Source of the DNA: Dictyostelium discoideum
Taxonomy: Eukaryota
Assembly (NCBI GenBank): GCA_000004695.1
Contig: CM000151.3
Location: 5,952,001-6,016,000 of the forward strand
DNA length: 64,000 bases
Reading direction: 5' to 3'
Position numbers and translations under genes: made by a program. Below are positions 9,788-38,857 of this stretch, in pieces (the first letter of the stretch is position 1; every line of letters starts with the position of its first letter). The notes below the pieces were generated by a model that worked only from the letters and a program-made list of their open reading frames with translations, ran no database searches and was not told the DNA's origin.

Positions 9788-11935
<2,148 letters not shown>

Positions 11936-29536: not shown

Positions 29537-29571
<35 letters not shown>

Positions 29572-29904
29572 TTAATAAAAACATAATAATTAATTTTTGC
29601 AACCTAATTATTTCAAGTAAAAAAATAAAAAGGTGAAATTTCTATTATTGGATTAATTATTTTTGAATTTAATAAAGTTTTCAGTTAACTATACAATTAA
29701 CTATTTAGTTTATTAATTATTATTAAACTAATTTTTTGATTAAATAATTTACTTATTTTATTAATGGATTTAATAATTAAATAAATAAATTAAAAGGGTT
29801 TTAGTTGGTTGTAATAAATTAGATAATTGGATATATTGAATTTTGAGTATAGTTGGAAAGACCATATTAATTAAAATTCTATTATCAATTGATTTCTTTG
29901 TTTA

Positions 29905-30135
29905 TTAATGGACTGCAGGTGATCGAGATGGGAGATCAACCATATGCAAGATACAGTTATATAAGCATGTACCTAATGCTTCTGAACAAACTTCGAGCGG
30001 TGCTGAGTCAAAACCGGTAACACAAAATAGGAAAGTATTTTTGCAATCTTTTTTACATTTGGTATTGAAAATTGAACAAAAAGCTCCAGAGGTGGCAATA
30101 GATAATAAAAGTACAATTAGAATTATTTTATTCAT
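29905..30135 (-). CDS. Small secreted cysteine-rich peptide (76 aa), family member II.
   Basis: It reads MNKIILIVLLLSIATSGAFC|SIFNTKCKKDCKNTFLFCVTGFDSAPLEVCSEALGTCLYNCILHMVDLPSRSPAVH. A signal peptide is followed by a mature domain with C-x6-C-x3-C spacing twice. Paralogs lie at 42199-42444 and 45672-45920. Confidence 0.6.
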   Translation of the reverse strand: MNKIILIVLLLSIATSGAFCSIFNTKCKKDCKNTFLFCVTGFDSAPLEVCSEALGTCLYNCILHMVDLPSRSPAVH

Positions 30136-30970
30136 TTTTATTATATTTTGTTTTTTTTATTATTATTAAAAATTTGAAAAATAGATATTGGTATAATATT
30201 TAAATTATAAAAGTAAATAAAATTTTAAAAAGTATTTATATTAAAAAAAAAAAAAGAAAATTTAATTTGAAAAAATAAAAAAAAAAATAGATATAGTTAT
30301 TAATTATTAAAAAAAAAAAATTTGAAAGTAAATGTGCACCCATCTTAAAACCAAAAGAGGATGACTACATCGATTTTTTATTCCATAATTGTTATTTGAA
30401 TATGACGACAATAATTTTAAGCACCTTTTGTAAATCAAAGAAAAAAATAAAAATAATTTTAAAAAGGTAACTTGCCAATACATAGATTTAATACCAATTT
30501 TTTTAAAATATTTGAGAAAAATATTTATAATTTATGAATTCCATTGGTTATTTTAAAATAAAAAAAGTAAAATAATCTATAGATTTTACAGATAATTTTT
30601 AAAACCATGTACAATTTAGTGTGTGGGTGAAAAAAATAAATTTAGATTTAACAAAAAAAAAAAAATTAAAAAAAAAAATAAATAAATAAATGAAAAAAAT
30701 AAAATAGGAACTGGTTTAAATTGTTAAAAGTCATAATGATAAAAAATGTCAACTTGTGAAATAACAAGTGGTAATTGTAGAATTTTCCATTGATTTTAGC
30801 AGTTGATGGTGCAATAATTATTCCAAATACTAATTTTATTCATTCATTTTTAATTTATTCCTTGAGAATTTAAGTTCTAATTCAAAAAAATAATTTATTT
30901 TTAATTTTATTTATTAATTGAGAATTTAAACTAACTACATTTATAGTTATATTTTAATTTTTTTAGTGGC

Positions 30971-31004
<34 letters not shown>

Positions 31005-31410
31005 TAATTATTTATTTTTTATTATTTATTTGTATTAATTTAATGAATTAATATTTTATTTATTCATTGACAAATTAAATAAATAAAATTACATTTAGAG
31101 TTATAATTTAATATTAATATTAAAATGTTTTTTTTTAAACTAATTTCAAGTGGGGTTAACTTTTTTTTTTTTTTCATTTTTTATATTTTATTTTTTAAGT
31201 TTATATGTTTCATGTAAAATCAAAAAGGGATTTTTTAACCCCTAATTTCACCCTTGAAAAAAACACTTAATAAATTTAATAATATTTGGCAATAAAAATA
31301 AATAAAATGTATTCTTTATTCATTAATTAATAATATTTATGAAGTGCAATATTTAATTATGTGCTTTTTAAAATTTTGAGGGAAAAAATTAGACAATTTT
31401 AAAAAACTAA
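30060..31410. repeat. Segmental duplication block (the 5' part of the Cys-peptide gene plus ~1.3 kb of its upstream region). It is almost identical to 38860-40190.
   Basis: Long colinear identity with only a few mismatches or indels, read by eye. More diverged versions lie at 42380-43160 plus 43700-44300, and at 45860-46600. Confidence 0.8.
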
Positions 31411-31915
31411 ACGCACTATGGACATGGTTTCAAAGTTGGAAAGTCCTAAAAAAAAAAAAAAAGCTTCAAATTCATTATGGATTCTATTGGATCATTATAC
31501 AAAACATTGTAAGATTTCCCAAAGAATTCATAAAAGTAATAATGTTTTCATTGGTTTCAATATTAATGAAAGATATTTTGGTATGATTGCACTGACGAAG
31601 AATGTAAAAAGAAAACACAACAAAAAAAAATTCAAATAAAACTAAATCAAAAAAAAACCATAAAACAATGGAATTCGATGAAGATTTTTTCAATTAAAAT
31701 TCTATAAAAATAAAAAACAAAATAAAAAAAATAAATTTTATAAAAAAAAAAAATGTTTGAAAATATAAAATCATTAATCTTCACAGCAGTTTCTTTATTA
31801 TTCTCTTTTTTTGTTATCATAGTGATTCAATTAAAATCTTGGTGAGGCAGTTTTGGAAACAATAGACGATTCATAAACCCCAAACTTCATTACAACAAGA
31901 ATCATTAAAATTACA

Positions 31916-32503
31916 ATGTACATGCAAACCATTATAAAACAATCGAAAAGTATCGATGAAGATTTGGTACAAGGAACTAAAAAATGGGAAGAAGCAAGAG
32001 AGTAGTATTCTTTAACTGGAAGTAGATTAGCTGCTGCCATTGGAATTGATCGATACACTTCACAACATGATATAAAATTAATATTGGCGAAAAAGAAAAC
32101 CCCATTCTTTAGTGACTACTGTAAAAAGGCAATGGGACATGGAAAACACCAAGAACCAAAAGCAAGAGAATTTTATTTTAATGAATTGGAGACTTCAATT
32201 ATCGAAAAGGGTATCTTTCCATTGCCAGGCGACAAAAGAATTGGATGTTCTCCTGATAGGGTAATTTACACAACAGTACCTGGTAAAGATGGAGTTTTAC
32301 AGCGTGAAGGAGTTATTGAAATTAAATGTCCACTATCTGCCACGAACTTCAGTGGCCTAAAGAATGGTAGAAAACCTGATGCCTTAGCTAATGCTCAGAA
32401 AATACCTCTAGATTACATTCCACAAATATTTGCAAACATGGCATGTACTGGGGCACAATGGTGTGATTATATATGTTGGGTTCCAGGTGGTATACTTTTG
32501 TAG
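31916..32503 (+). pseudogene. YqaJ-type viral recombinase / lambda-exonuclease-like (PD-(D/E)xK) nuclease domain gene. It is disrupted by an in-frame TAG at ~32003-32005 and truncated at its C-terminus.
   Basis: The translation reads MYMQTIIKQSKSIDEDLVQGTKKWEEARE*YSLTGSRLAAAIGIDRYTSQHDIKL...GHGKHQEPKAREFYFNELETSIIEKGIFPLPGDKRIGCSPDRVIY...DGVLQREGVIEIKCPLSATNF...IPLDYIPQIFANMACTGAQWCDYICWVPGG. This matches the YqaJ pattern: W..R.G.iTaS, then gasPDg, then ilEiKCP, then Y..QvQ.Q. The domain stops early at ...GGILL*. Confidence 0.65.
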
Positions 32504-32717
32504 AAGGGTATTCTTTGATACAAATGTATGGAAATTTATTTATTCGTTATCAAAATTATTTATAGATACACCTTTAAATGAAATACCTTTAAAGAATGAA
32601 AAAACATTAATAATAAATACATTACTCTTACAGAAACTTAAAGTTTTAAATCCACACCTAAATATTCATGTACGAACTAAATTATCAAAAAAAATAATAA
32701 AAAATAAAAAAAATAAT

Positions 32718-33120
32718 TTCTAATGGCTTATAATAATAATTCTTTTATTTTAAAATAATAAAAAATAGAAAAAGTTTTAAAAAAAAATAATAAAAAAAAA
32801 AATTCTAATGGCTTTTATAAAGATTATTTTAAAATTGAAAAAAATAAAAAAATTTAAATTTGTAAACTGATTAATGTTACACTATTAATGTCTTCGAAAT
32901 ATCTATTGAATTTTCTAAAGATATTTGAAGGTTTCAGAGAAACAGTTTTTTAGGAATAATTAATGATTTTTTCTAATGGTTTTTCTAATGATTTTCAGTA
33001 TAATGATTTTTAAGATAATAAAAAATTGATTTTTTTTTGGGGTTTTGGGGAAAAGATATTTATTGGAGAATATTTCCTAGTTTCTTTATAATCATTTTAC
33101 AAAAAAAAATTTTCTAACGG
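32718..33120. repeat. Array of five TTCTAA(T/C)GG motifs spaced 15-170 bp apart, with two ~100-bp tandem units at 32960-33200.
   Basis: The motifs lie at about 32718, 32803, 32971, 32983 and 33112. The two ~100-bp units share gg(g)tttt(a)gg(g/t)gaaaaga(t/a)atttatt(g/a)g(a/g)gaat. Confidence 0.4.
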
Positions 33121-33631
33121 TTTGATTATAATCATCATGGGGTTTAGGTGAAAAGAAATTTATTAGGGAATGTTTTGTTTTTCAATTCATTTTCAAAAAT
33201 ATATAAATAATGGTTAATGTAAATTTTTGTAAGGTACCAAGAGGAAAGAATGGAGAAAATGTTAAAGTATGTCTATTCATATAGTTAAAAAAAAATATAA
33301 ATTTATTAAATATAAATATAAATTAACATCATTTTTTTCTTATTTTTTTTATAGGTTCTTAATAATGATTATTTGACAATCATACAGTTTAAAATTAAAA
33401 AATTGTTTTAAACCATCACTTTTTTTGAACACATGAAAATAAATAAGAAATAAAAATAAAAAGATAAAAAAAGATTTTTTTTTTTTTTTTTATTTTATAA
33501 TTATTCTTGTCGTCAGTATTGTTACTATAATTAATCCCATGAGTTTTTTTTATTATTATTTTTAATTCTTTTATATTTGAGATGATTATTATTAATTAAA
33601 TGACTTTGAGTTTTTTTTTTTATTTTTCTAT

Positions 33632-33806
33632 GCCCAAAATTACCATATTAATTTCGGCAGCCATATTAATTTCAGCCTAAAATAGTTGGTCTGTGCATGC
33701 CAAAATAATATGGCTGCTGAAATTAATATGGTATTACTAGCAGACATAAGTCCCATGCCAAAACTATCATATTAATTTCAGCAGCCATATTAATTTTGGC
33801 ATGGGA
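33632..33806. repeat. Composite palindromic repeat. A ~40-bp unit (TGCC(C)AAAAyTAyCATATTAATTTCrGCAGCCATATTAATTT) occurs as direct, inverted, direct copies, and the second and third copies form a ~38-bp-arm hairpin.
   Basis: Unit A is 33632-33677, unit B (inverted) 33696-33733, unit C 33751-33806. B is the reverse complement of C with a ~35-nt loop. It lies immediately upstream of the A32-like ATPase fragment. Confidence 0.7.
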
Positions 33807-34057
33807 CATTCCATCGATTTAAATTTTTCTAAAGTTTTTTTATTTTTTTATTTAATTAATTATTTATTTTTTTATCTTTGTAAAGCAATGACTGATTTTG
33901 ATATTAGTGATTCAGAAGAAAAAGATATTAGAAAAAATGATGTAAAAGTAAGAAAAAAAATTGAAAAAAAAATTAACACCAATGGTGCACCTGATGACCA
34001 ATTTGTCATTACATAAAAACAAAAATGAATAAATGGTGGCAACAATGTGTCCCTTAA

Positions 34058-34828
34058 AAGTATATTTTTGAAGAGTGGTCGCCACATATAATTCAAAAAA
34101 TCTTTGATAGAAATAAGGCCATTATTGATGCTGGTTTACAAAAATATACCGATACTAGAATTCTCTTTATTTTAGATGATATTATTGGTGAAGATAGTTT
34201 TAAAAACGATGAAGTTTTAAAAAATGTTTTTATTTTGGGTCGTCATTATCATGTTGGATTTATGATATTAACACAGTATGCTTATGCTCTTCATCCATTG
34301 GTTAGAGGTAACACTGATTATGTTTTAACCACACTTCAATCACAAAATCGTCAAAGGGAAGCCATTGCAAAGGATTATGCTGATATTGTTGATAGAAATG
34401 CATTTTATGAACTTTTGGATAAAAATACTACCGATAATCATCTATTGGTTATCGATTTATCAAAGCCAACCATTAATGTCGATGATGTTTTCTCTCGTTT
34501 CAAAGCTGATAATCCAGGGCCATTTAGGGTGGGATCAGAAAAATGCTGGGATAAACATGAAAAACAAATTCAAATGATATATAATAAAGTTAGATTGGAA
34601 ATGGGTTGGTATTCAGAAGAAGATCAAGAGATAAGAAAGAAAAAATTTAAAAAAAAACTTGAAAAACATGAAAAAAAAGAAAAAGAAGTTGAAGTAAATA
34701 TTGAAAAACTTCCAAAATCAATAGAGAAAAAAAATGAAAGTAATGAAGAAGACAATGAAAAAAATCAAATAAATTTTTTAATTTTAATTTTTTTTTTTTT
34801 TTTTTTTTTTATAATCTTTTATTGATTT
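34058..34828 (+). pseudogene. C-terminal half of an A32-like (FtsK/HerA superfamily) DNA-packaging ATPase, the type found in NCLDVs, Polintons/Mavericks and virophages. The Walker A half is missing, so this is a fragment.
   Basis: The open frame reads ...RILFILDDIIGEDSF (Walker B hhhhDD), then ...VFILGRHYHVGFMILTQYAYALHPLVRGNTDYVLTT. The GRH, Q and R.N motif order and spacing match vaccinia A32 FLLIFDDVGD...FGRHLNTSIILLCQTY...RANITHFCSF. An E/K-rich tail follows. The track ORF 34235..34825 starts at an internal TTG. Confidence 0.6.
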
Positions 34829-36525
34829 CTTTAATGTTTGTTAAAAGTTTTTCTTGAGTTCCAAAAAATGTGAGATAAAATGGGACCCCAAAATTTGGAT
34901 CACCTCTAAATATAGAACTAACACCATTCCCAATGAGAAGTGTTAAACATACACCCATCGATAGCTGAAGGCTCGATGATAAAAGTAAATCATTAGTTGA
35001 TGTTTGATTGATTTTATATCGATAATCTCTCAATAAATCATTTTCCATTATAACATGTAAACTACTATCACCTTTCTTTGGTTCTAAAACATATTTATCG
35101 AATGATTCATCGAGTTTATGGCCAACATATGACCCAATTAATGCTTGTGCTAATCCATGAGAAATTGCTGTAATTACTTCATTAGCCATTTTTTTTTCTA
35201 AAGACCTGTTTTAATATTTGTTCCAATGGATGGTGGTTTTTCTATGTAAATTAGAATATGTTGTCCATGGGCTAACATTACTTCATATTGATTTTCCAAT
35301 GAATGATTGTTGTCGTGAATTTTTTTAACGCTTCTAACTATTAATGCATCACCCGATAAAGTGTGTAATTCATTTTCTCTAATCCACGATTTTGCTGTGG
35401 GATCTAAAGCAATTGTTTTTTTAACATGTGATTCAATTTTATCATGATGATGGTCGTCTGATATTGAAATGAATTGACTATAAATAATTCCAGCTGCTAT
35501 TCCTCCTAATAAATAATAGTTCATTTTTTTATTTCTTTTTATTTAAAATATCCTTTAGTTTTTCTTCATTTAATTGAATTTGAGATTTTATTTCTTCATC
35601 GGTCTCTTTTCTTTTTTGGGATCTTTCTCTGCTATTCACTTCATTGGTCATCCTAATGGTTTCAGCAATAGCAGCCACCGTTCTTAAAATAACTGGTGTA
35701 CGACCAATATCATACTTTATAACCAACTCTTGGAATGTATCTTTAAAAAAATAAAACCTTAATTGGTTTTGTTTTATTTTGTGTAATAATCTTTATTTTT
35801 TTATTTTTTTTATTTATTTTTTTTTTATTTTTTTTATTTATTCTTATTTTTGCAATGATCTTTATTTTTTATTATTTTCTTTTTATTTTTCTTCTTTTTT
35901 TGTTGGGATATCTGTTCTTTTTCGTGTACCAGGAAAATTAAGATCCAAAATATTGATGGTAAAGAAATCTTGAATATTTTTATCTTGAACTAAATGATCC
36001 TCACCAATATAGTAGTTTAATACATCTCTGAATTGAAAAGGAGGTAAGGAACCATCTTCGTTAACTTTGAGTGATTGATAAAGTATTGATGCAGTTTTAT
36101 ACATTTCAAGTCTTTCTACTACTTCCTTGATACATTCTGCTGTACAATTTTTCCCAAATTCAAATTCCAATAAGTTATCATATTGAAAAAGGTTTTCAGT
36201 AAAATTTGGGTGGTGGTGGTTACGGTTCATTTTTTTTTCTCTGTGTCAAAAATGAAAATTATTTGTGTGAATTAAAAATAAAAATAAAAACAAAAATATA
36301 AAAAAAAAAAAATAAAAAAAAAAAATTGAAAAAAAAGGTCAACCCATGAGGAGCCATATTCCCGAAAACAAAGTATACCCCATTCCCATTAAAATGATTA
36401 ACTCTGGGCCAGACACCATTGGCGTTTTTTCTAATGAACATAATATCGTTAAACCATTGCGTGTTTGGAGTTATAGAATTGTCGTTGATAATACCAACAT
36501 AGTGATGTGAGTTACAGGAATTCAC
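34809..36525 (-). other. Run of five short minus-strand ORFs (126, 108, 65, 115 and 88 aa). Two are in the same frame, separated by a single TAG. They are likely remnants of one or more decayed genes in the island.
   Basis: ORFs 35198..35524 and 34809..35189 are joined as ...NIKTGL*KKMANEVITAIS... The other ORFs shift frame. There are two hydrophobic segments. I recognised no domain. Confidence 0.25.
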
Positions 36526-36845
36526 AAAAAAAAAAGGATCAATAAAATAATTTTTAATAAAATTTTCATTTGGAGATAGTTATTTATATGAAGTATAATA
36601 TAATAAAAATAAAAAAATAAAAAAAATTTATACAAAAATAAAATGGTGAGAAAAATATTAATGTTTTTGAGTAAATTAGGTAAAAATTAAAAAATAATTT
36701 TTTTTATTTATTATTTTTTTTTTTTAATTTACAAATTTATTTATTATTTATTTATAATTTCTCACTTAAAAAATTAAGTAGTCATTGTTATTATTATTTT
36801 TTTTATTTTTTTTTTATTTTTATTTATTATTTTTTTTATTTTTTT

Positions 36846-38095
36846 TTGTTTTTATTTATTTTTTTTTTTATTTTTTTTTTGCTGTATATCGGTAAAGCAT
36901 CCCATCAAGAAGGAAGGGGTTTGTACAACAGAGGTTACACAGATCTAACTGGTGGCTCAAGGAGATGGGGGAATCCAAATTCAGACCCACCAGAAATGGC
37001 AAATGCTGAAGTTTTAATGTATTATAGAGGTTTTGATGGTCCAGTTGCTGGTCATGCTGAGTGGTGGTTCCTTTCAGTATTTGGGTGTCCAGAAAATAGT
37101 TTCAACGAGGGTGGTTTAAGGACATCTGAACACAGTTATGGCGCAGGTCAATGGAATTTTTTCCATGCAAATGCTCCCCCAGTTAATGTTCGTCAATATA
37201 TTATAAATCAAGATCCATCCCCCGGTTTTTTTTTAGATTTCAAAACTATCCATCTGCTCCAAGTATTATAAGAAGAATTGTTGAATGTGAAACTGAACGA
37301 TTACACGCTGAAGGTCTTTCAGTTAAAGTTCCTGGTCTTCAAAATCAAGTGGTACATTTTCAAAATCAAGTGGTAAATCTTCAAAATGCAAACGAACTAT
37401 TGACAAACTATAATGCTTATTTGGCTGCAGCTCTTCTTAATGCTATGCCTCAGATTCCAAATCTAGATGGTTTTCTACCAGTATACGGTCCTGGGTTGGA
37501 AGTTTCAAGTGAAGCTATTCGTAATTGGAATGAAGCAAGAAAAAATGGCGGTGGTGGTATTGGTGGTGGTATCGGTGGCGGTGGTATTGGTGGTATTGGT
37601 GGTATCGGTGGGGTAGATGATGGTAAAAAGGGTGATGGTAAAAGAGGTTCAGGTGGTGCGGATGGTGCACATGATGGTTGGTTAAAATCTGGCTGTATTT
37701 GTCCAGAAACTCCTCCTTGTCCAGTAGTAATTCCATGTCCAGAGCCAGTGGTTTGTAATATAGCAAAAATTCAAATTCAATTGAATTCAACCATAAAAAG
37801 TTTGGATGAATGCAAAAAACAAAAGGACCAAACCAATGATAACCTCAACGTCTGCAAGTCCCATAAAGATGAGACACAAGATTGGCTCACCGACTGTCAA
37901 AAAGAATATGTTAAACAAACAAGTCATTCATCCAAAGATGATACTCTAATTTCTCTCAGAAACTGCCAAGCCGAATACCAAAAAGAAACATTCAAAAAAG
38001 ATAAGCTCTGCCGTGGTTTGTCCAAACATATCATTGGTTATCTCGATTTCTGTGAAGATAAGGTAGAAAAGCTCAAACTCGCTAATTGTGAATAG
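36846..38095 (+). CDS. Hypothetical ~415-aa protein with a Gly-rich (GGIGG)n segment, a CxxPxxPPCP Cys/Pro cluster and a Cys-containing coiled-coil tail. It is intact only if a +1 shift occurs in a T9 homopolymer at ~37224-37232.
   Basis: ORF 36846..37271 ends 75 bp before ORF 37349..38095, which is in the +1 frame. With T10 instead of T9, ...DPSPGFF joins FRFQNYPSAPSIIRRIVECETERLHAEG...VHFQNQVVNLQNANELL... continuously. This could be a sequencing error, a pseudogene or a slippage site. Confidence 0.45.
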
Positions 38096-38518
38096 TTTTC
38101 TCATTTTTAAAAAAAAAAAAAAACAAAAAAAAAAAAATCATATAATGGTTTCCTTTATGAAATCAATAAAAAAATTCTTTAAATAAAATTTTTAATCTTA
38201 TTTTAAAAAAATTCTTTTAATGAAATCCATTATTTTCATTTTTTATAATTTTATTGAACTTTATTGAAAATAATTAGATATTGTTATTTCCAATGGTTTT
38301 AGATTGATAACGGTATAGATGTGACCATTAAATAGAAAACTATTAAAAATTGAGCCAAAGAAAAATCAACGATTTTTAATGGTTGTTTAAAGATTTCCTA
38401 TAGAAAATTTAAAATGATTTTTTTAAAAATATTTCAAAACCAATGTCATAAAATAAAAATTCTCAATTACTAAATATAAACATGTATAGATCATTAGGTT
38501 TATTTTTAAAAAAAAACG

Positions 38519-38773
38519 ATGGGTGCCCGTCAAAAAAAAGAAATTGAAGCAGATCCTGAAAGGGTAAAATTAATAAAAATTAAAAAAACACAAAAAAGAT
38601 TGGCCGAACAAGAAGAAAGAAGAAGGTTGATGCAAGAAGAAAGTGAAAGAAGACGATTGCAAAGACTTAGAGAAAAACAAGAGCCAATTAGAACCTTTGC
38701 AACTGCACAAGAAGCTCAACGATATATACCCAAACCTGGTAACTTTGCACGTAAAAGAGGTGCTAGAAATTAA
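38519..38773 (+). CDS. Small (84 aa) Lys/Arg/Glu-rich protein.
   Basis: MGARQKKEIEADPERVKLIKIKKTQKRLAEQEERRRLMQEESERRRLQRLREKQEPIRTFATAQEAQRYIPKPGNFARKRGARN. Its codon usage is less AT-biased than the surrounding DNA. I did not recognise the family. Confidence 0.35.
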   Translation: MGARQKKEIEADPERVKLIKIKKTQKRLAEQEERRRLMQEESERRRLQRLREKQEPIRTFATAQEAQRYIPKPGNFARKRGARN

Positions 38774-38857
38774 AAAAGAAAAAAGAAAAATAATTGAAAG
38801 AAATAAAAAAAAAAAAATTAAAAATTAAAAAAAAAATAAACTACATCTCTTATATAA

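Follow-up and report, generated by a model that had tools for sequence, protein, structure and literature searches.

The 64,000-nucleotide stretch of Dictyostelium discoideum DNA that we analyzed (the window) has a G+C content of ~20% and encodes eukaryotic proteins, namely an MTR4-type helicase, a cyclin, and an ALMT-type channel (Pfam). A decayed virus-like island occupies part of it. Several of its ORFs recur in less decayed copies from other strains of D. discoideum and from D. cf. discoideum, in which a DUF5906 helicase-like gene, a deoxynucleoside kinase gene, and a GRF zinc-ribbon gene are present as well; the island seems to represent a family of multicopy endogenous viral elements in Dictyostelium. 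Its remnants include a YqaJ-type nuclease pseudogene and an ORF that is 99% identical to DDB_G0275725 of D. discoideum AX4, whose Acytostelium homologue carries PF04665, the poxvirus A32-type packaging ATPase domain. The composite repeat that is our subject lies just upstream of the latter ORF. The features of the locus are as follows, in window coordinates:

31396-38886: decayed virus-like island, with relatives L001, L003, L004, L007, and L008
31916-32500: YqaJ-type exonuclease pseudogene with an in-frame stop (PF09588, E = 1.3e-35)
33376-33808, minus strand: 433-bp left-truncated end fragment, very probably of thug-S type, with its outer terminus at 33808 and running from outside to inside on the minus strand
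33634-33672, plus strand: repeat copy 1 (CGG variant), in which 33647-33667 is identical to the 21-nt published miRNA_can_D3-3p
33702-33742, minus strand: repeat copy 2, the middle arm common to both alternative hairpins
33705-33793, both strands: match to the Rfam mir-7131 microRNA precursor family (RF03716), 86.3 bits on the minus strand and 85.6 bits on the plus strand
33752-33805, no strand assigned: terminal 54-nt mini-palindrome, composed of CCCATGCCAAAA, the core (copy 3), and TTTTGGCATGGG
33756-33796, plus strand: repeat copy 3 (CAG variant), of which 33771-33791 is the mir-7131-type hairpin arm that pairs with copy 2
33794-33808, minus strand: element terminus TGTCCCATGCCAAAA, a 15-mer whose first three bases, TGT, are 33806-33808
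From 33809, no strand assigned: flank TTCCATCGATTT, the first bases beyond the element
33888-34800: A32-like packaging ATPase remnant (DDB_G0275725), shorter than its L001 counterpart by 192 bp that include Walker A

The wider surroundings are themselves repetitive. The island is bracketed by a 1.3-kb direct repeat (30088-31410 and 38857-40181, 97.9% identical), itself a member of a more extensive tandem family (29537-30698, 42027-43038, and 45255-46472). Farther away, a tandem array at 10890-11916 lies in the long ORF 10692-11702, with self-alignment offsets in multiples of ~129 bp and ~90% identity.

An initial annotation of this DNA had described three units of ~40 nt in direct, inverted, and direct orientation, and we found exactly this arrangement at 33634-33672 (+), 33702-33742 (−), and 33756-33796 (+). 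A repeat search returned one direct pair (33634-33672 and 33758-33796; 39 nt, 92% identical) and two inverted pairs, one formed by copies 2 and 3 (33702-33742 and 33756-33796; 41 nt, 85% complementary, 13-nt spacer) and the other by copies 1 and 2 (33641-33672 and 33702-33733; 32 nt, 94% complementary). The internal duplication ascribed to each unit is present as well, since CATATTAATTT can be read twice per unit at a spacing of 18 nt. The long hairpin attributed to copies 2 and 3 also stood, with the correction that its stem is slightly longer than the ~38 bp proposed and reaches ~45 bp once the outer CATGCCAAAA/TTTTGGCATG extension is counted. Seen from its outer end, the composite repeat starts with the 54-nt terminal palindrome, after which come two more core copies of ~30 nt, all in alternating orientation.

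Folding, which had been suggested as a check, gave a stable hairpin for RNA and DNA alike, with z-scores of about −8.5 to −9.9. As DNA, the composite repeat folded at −46.1 kcal/mol (z = −9.9). As RNA, the plus strand (191 nt) folded at −70.7 kcal/mol (z = −8.9) with the copy 2/3 hairpin chosen, and the minus strand folded at −76.6 kcal/mol (z = −8.5) with the terminal mini-hairpin and the copy 1/2 hairpin chosen; in this minus-strand minimum-energy structure the 54-nt palindrome folds independently. The copy 2/3 hairpin folded alone reached −60.2 kcal/mol (RNA). The folds thus describe two mutually exclusive long hairpins, of copies 2 and 3 or of copies 1 and 2, that use the same middle arm.

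A window with ~20% G+C is rich in A/T-rich imperfect inverted repeats, which is the one circumstance in favor of reading the structure as a palindrome that arose by chance or from low complexity in AT-rich intergenic sequence. We give that reading practically no credence. The 30-nt core pattern, with up to three mismatches allowed, has exactly three matches in the 64-kb window and none in 100 dinucleotide shuffles, the fold z-scores are as low as those given above, and near-identical copies exist at other loci. A chance origin of the composite repeat is refuted.

What the initial annotation had missed, correct as it was on the layout, is that the hairpin is a known miRNA precursor. At curated thresholds, mir-7131 is the sole Rfam family in the whole window, and the match spans model positions 1-84 of 84 with scores that are almost equal on both strands and above the gathering score of 74 bits. 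Published work describes ~21-nt small RNAs cut from hairpins of the mir-7131 family by the Dicer-like DrnB/RbdB machinery, although the term "mir-7131" itself was not found in the literature and supplements searched. The small RNAs in question appear there as miRNA_can_D3, for which six AX4 loci are tabulated, with two reads 63 nt apart, and which is assigned to the multicopy DNA transposon thug-S and placed "in the intron" of thug-S instead of at an end of the element (Meier et al. 2016, PMC4894637). In the same study, the relative read level of miRNA_can_D3 fell from 68 in the wild type to 3.3 in rbdB− cells; by its account, thug-S-derived miRNAs had been published earlier by Avesson et al. 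(2012). Both the mir-7131 family and the thug-S origin of such miRNAs are therefore already published and curated, and the feature as such is already known.

Both published reads can be placed on the window. The miRNA_can_D3-3p sequence, AUUAAUUUCGGCAGCCAUAUU, matches 33647-33667 in copy 1 exactly, and miRNA_can_D3-5p, UAUGGCUGCUGAAAUUAAUGUGG, matches the plus strand at 33709-33731 in copy 2 with one mismatch. The offset between 5p and 3p is 62 nt in the window, as against 63 nt at the AX4 loci, and the order is unchanged. Being multicopy, the reads are not attributable to the window copy, from which D3-5p differs by one base; this one-base difference suggests that the window locus may be a copy beyond the six AX4 positions of Meier et al. 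Sequence that distinguishes the copies includes, for example, TATGGCTGCTGAAATTAATATGG with A, not G, at position 19, and likewise the variants of the inner stem. By computed pairing, the 21-mer duplexes of both alternative hairpins have Dicer-type 2-nt 3′ overhangs: the middle-arm read pairs with the 21-mer of copy 1 or with that of copy 3, with 2-nt 3′ overhangs either way. From this overhang geometry, we infer that the direct/inverted/direct layout provides two alternative Dicer substrates that have one arm in common.

To place the hairpin in its larger context, we relied on other copies of the repeat. L002 is the orthologous locus of another D. discoideum strain (99.86% identical over 12 kb) and keeps an identical hairpin and an identical mir-7131 match. 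L005 and L006 are unrelated D. discoideum host loci (assembly GCA_054859355.1), found through a protein-collection search with the peptides that the hairpin would encode, which led to the gene models P0016 and P0017. The repeat module is present in two places in L005 and also in L006, and so the unit is not unique in the genome; uniqueness is what the initial annotation had named as fatal to its proposal. Both "hypothetical protein" models, P0016 (L005 10001-11765) and P0017 (L006 10001-11165), have a start or an end within the modules, and their translations include the hairpin arms (MAAEINM..., ...HINFSSHINF...); in each case the element has probably given rise to an annotation artefact.

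The homology extends well inward from the composite repeat. The fragment is collinear with L005 11680-11953 (89% over 294 nt) and further with L005 14322-14560 and with L006 11531-11655 and 10327-10556. When we aligned the terminus in the window (reverse complement), L002, L005, and L006, homology started exactly at TGTCCCATGCC, preceded by the flanks GATGGAA, AACTATA, and TGTCAAT (ending GGAA, TATA, and CAAT). The 15-mer TGTCCCATGCCAAAA is found at four independent termini with unrelated flanks (window 33808, L005 11680, L005 14577, and L006 10327), the L005 14577 terminus being on the opposite strand. Paralogs free of the element break at the same points: L001 at 9926/9927 for the window, L005 7709 at the terminus of L005 11679/11680, and L006 15862 at the terminus of L006 10329/10330. 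Given this common sharp start and the element-free paralogs that break there, we conclude that the composite repeat forms the last ~180 bp at the outer end of a mobile repeat. At the other edge, homology of the window to the thug copies ends at 33376; the sequence is collinear with the other copies to that point and then diverges, which indicates that the window holds a 433-bp, left-truncated end fragment. One L005 module has lost half of one arm to a deletion and yet still gives a mir-7131 match, at a sub-threshold 59 bits, which argues that the miRNA hairpin is the terminal part of the element.

With the same module at unrelated loci, homology starting at TGTCCCATGCCAAAA, and unrelated flanks, the earlier suggestion of a transposon terminus was essentially right. 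We are highly confident that 33376-33808 is the left-truncated end of the multicopy DNA repeat thug-S, with a mir-7131-type hairpin at its outer end. The name thug-S is put forward on the basis of two later papers and the exact 21-mer match. Inverted termini occur in L005 at 11680 (+) and 14577 (−), 2.9 kb apart, and the interior between them looks composite. We found no transposase candidate among the ORFs of this 2.9-kb stretch, which have no Pfam domain. In the comparison with element-free paralogs, we saw no target-site duplication that matched at the junctions of L005, L006, and the window, where the left-hand junctions are sharp and the right-hand ones truncated or rearranged. Exact-pattern scans of IMG/VR and of the JGI metagenomes for the unit gave no match, as expected for an amoeba-specific repeat.

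One copy of the terminal palindrome differs from the others in orientation. The 54-nt palindrome at L006 10330-10383 is the exact in-place reverse complement of window 33752-33805 and of L005 11683-11735, and the stems and the following ACTTATGTCTGC are unchanged around it. The tally is one inverted copy versus three. In the second L006 module (11668-11745), the loop is inverted. That the thug-S end might be a hairpin-forming palindrome existing in two inverted states, flip and flop, is a doubtful idea that we consider improbable at present. If flip and flop were systematic, they would suggest that the element ends pass through a hairpin intermediate or use hairpin priming or, alternatively, that cruciforms often mediate inversion; the structure would in that case also be the Dicer substrate from which mir-7131 derives, and the direct/inverted/direct layout would yield two competing precursors that have one arm in common.

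The position of the repeat relative to the island invited another interpretation. As the initial annotation had noted, it sits between the nuclease-side and ATPase-side fragments, with the YqaJ pseudogene at 31916-32500 on one side and the ATPase remnant from 33888 on the other, and the proposals made there had included origins and resolution sites of linear viral or plasmid genomes. Under such a reading, the repeat would be the terminus, replication origin, or resolution site of the YqaJ nuclease/A32-like ATPase island and would mark a place of joining or resolution of a linear viral genome. The placement exactly between the two fragments agrees with this, as does the fact that homology to the more intact island copy L001, a paralog from another strain, begins at 33809, 1 nt after the last base of the element; the single flipped palindrome in L006 also recalls hairpin telomeres. 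The distribution of the unit, however, is the opposite of what an island-owned site would show. L001, L003, and L004, which are more intact island copies totaling ~63 kb, contain neither the unit nor a mir-7131 match, whereas L005 and L006, in which the unit is present, are host neighborhoods (RdRP and beta-galactosidase regions) whose called-gene Pfam tables list no YqaJ or A32-like ATPase gene. The IMG/VR scan likewise gave no exact match. We reject the viral reading, which we regard as extremely improbable, because those less decayed island copies lack the unit and host loci without island genes contain it; the absence from L001, L003, and L004 also speaks against an origin or resolution site and against a site owned by the island. 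The YqaJ nuclease gene was separately considered as the element's own ORF and rejected, as the four other YqaJ loci L003, L004, L007, and L008 carry neither the CATGCCAAAA stem motif nor the unit.

The element end does not belong to the architecture of the island itself. The alignment of L001 to the window (95% identity) begins at 33809 and not before, and that of L004, which represents the nuclease side in D. cf. discoideum, ends at 32853. On the ATPase side, the element end adjoins, after the second codon, what is probably a small minus-strand gene in remnant form (cf. L001 9927-9932), and the ATPase gene lost its 192 bp, including Walker A, separately from the break at the element end. Thug homology starts only at 33376, and the 522 bp in between (32854-33375) had no match among the loci compared. 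This segment contains repeated TTCTAATGG(C/T)TT motifs and an imperfect direct repeat of ~40 nt (GGGGTTTTGGGGAAAAGATATTTATTGGAG at ~33039 and GGGGTTTAGGTGAAAAGAAATTTATTAGGG at ~33139). The thug-S end may have been inserted between the nuclease-side and ATPase-side remnants, or it may have been joined there by rearrangement; its presence would date and explain one break point in the decayed island.

We also weighed whether the hairpin could be a stand-alone, host-selected microRNA gene, its transposon likeness being incidental and its position regulatory for the neighboring gene. Three observations favor this: an Rfam score over the gathering threshold, perfect conservation in a second strain, and a location 80 bp ahead of the start codon of DDB_G0275725. 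The conservation between strains nevertheless carries little weight, as overall identity is 99.86%, and the neighboring gene is a decayed ATPase without its Walker A segment. Furthermore, the hairpin lies within 433 bp that are collinear with other repeat copies and end at a common terminus, and the literature treats such loci as thug-S-derived and multicopy. A host-selected gene with a regulatory position is very improbable in our view, and the collinear repeat context makes any independent host miRNA gene unlikely.

On the preferred reading, that of a thug-S end fragment, the structure might act at two levels. As DNA, the alternating sub-terminal repeats are the terminal repeat array of the element; they could be recognized by a transposase, and the inserted sequence would meet host or island DNA at this end. 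As RNA, a transcript that runs through the region would be predicted to fold into the copy 2+3 or the copy 1+2 hairpin, and read-through transcripts may be cut by the DrnB/RbdB machinery into ~21-nt RNAs; the window copy may be expressed and processed in this way. The correct annotation is accordingly that of a thug-S end fragment with a mir-7131-type hairpin, and not that of a new recombination site or a viral terminus; beyond this correct annotation, the feature matters little. Two points add to the literature that we consulted: the miRNA hairpin lies in the outermost ~100 nt of the element and not in the intron of a real gene, and the three-arm layout gives two alternative precursors with a common middle arm.

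The feature can be set beside several described systems. The putative D. discoideum DNA transposon thug-S (Glockner et al. 2001) resembles the window element in being multicopy and a source of small RNAs and in having defined ends with unrelated flanks; inverted termini are seen in L005, at 11680 (+) and 14577 (−), but with a composite-looking interior. The window differs in holding an end fragment of 433 bp only, with one terminus and no second. Agreement with miRNA_can_D3 (PMC4894637) extends to an exact 3p sequence, a 5p sequence with one mismatch, the order of the reads, and their 62- to 63-nt offset.

Relative to Rfam RF03716, the window copy is a full-length match over the curated threshold (86 versus 74 bits), its arms equal the consensus except at the A/G position in the 3′ arm, and its loop, GACUUAUGUC, agrees with the consensus on the minus strand. 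It departs from the family in a degraded inner stem (UAGUUUUGGCAUGG/GCUAGUAAUA, compared to the symmetric consensus UAAUUCUGGCAGAC/GUCUGCCAGAAUUA), in three additional bases near the loop, and in a third, upstream arm that makes a second, competing hairpin possible. Transposon-derived miRNA hairpins are known from other organisms, including those derived from MITEs, such as the human mir-548 family from Made1. In those systems, as here, the inverted terminal repeats of a DNA element become a Dicer substrate and give rise to multicopy miRNA loci. Unlike mir-548/Made1-type hairpins, however, the window hairpin is not made by the pairing of the element's two opposite ends but forms within one element end, from alternating sub-terminal repeats.
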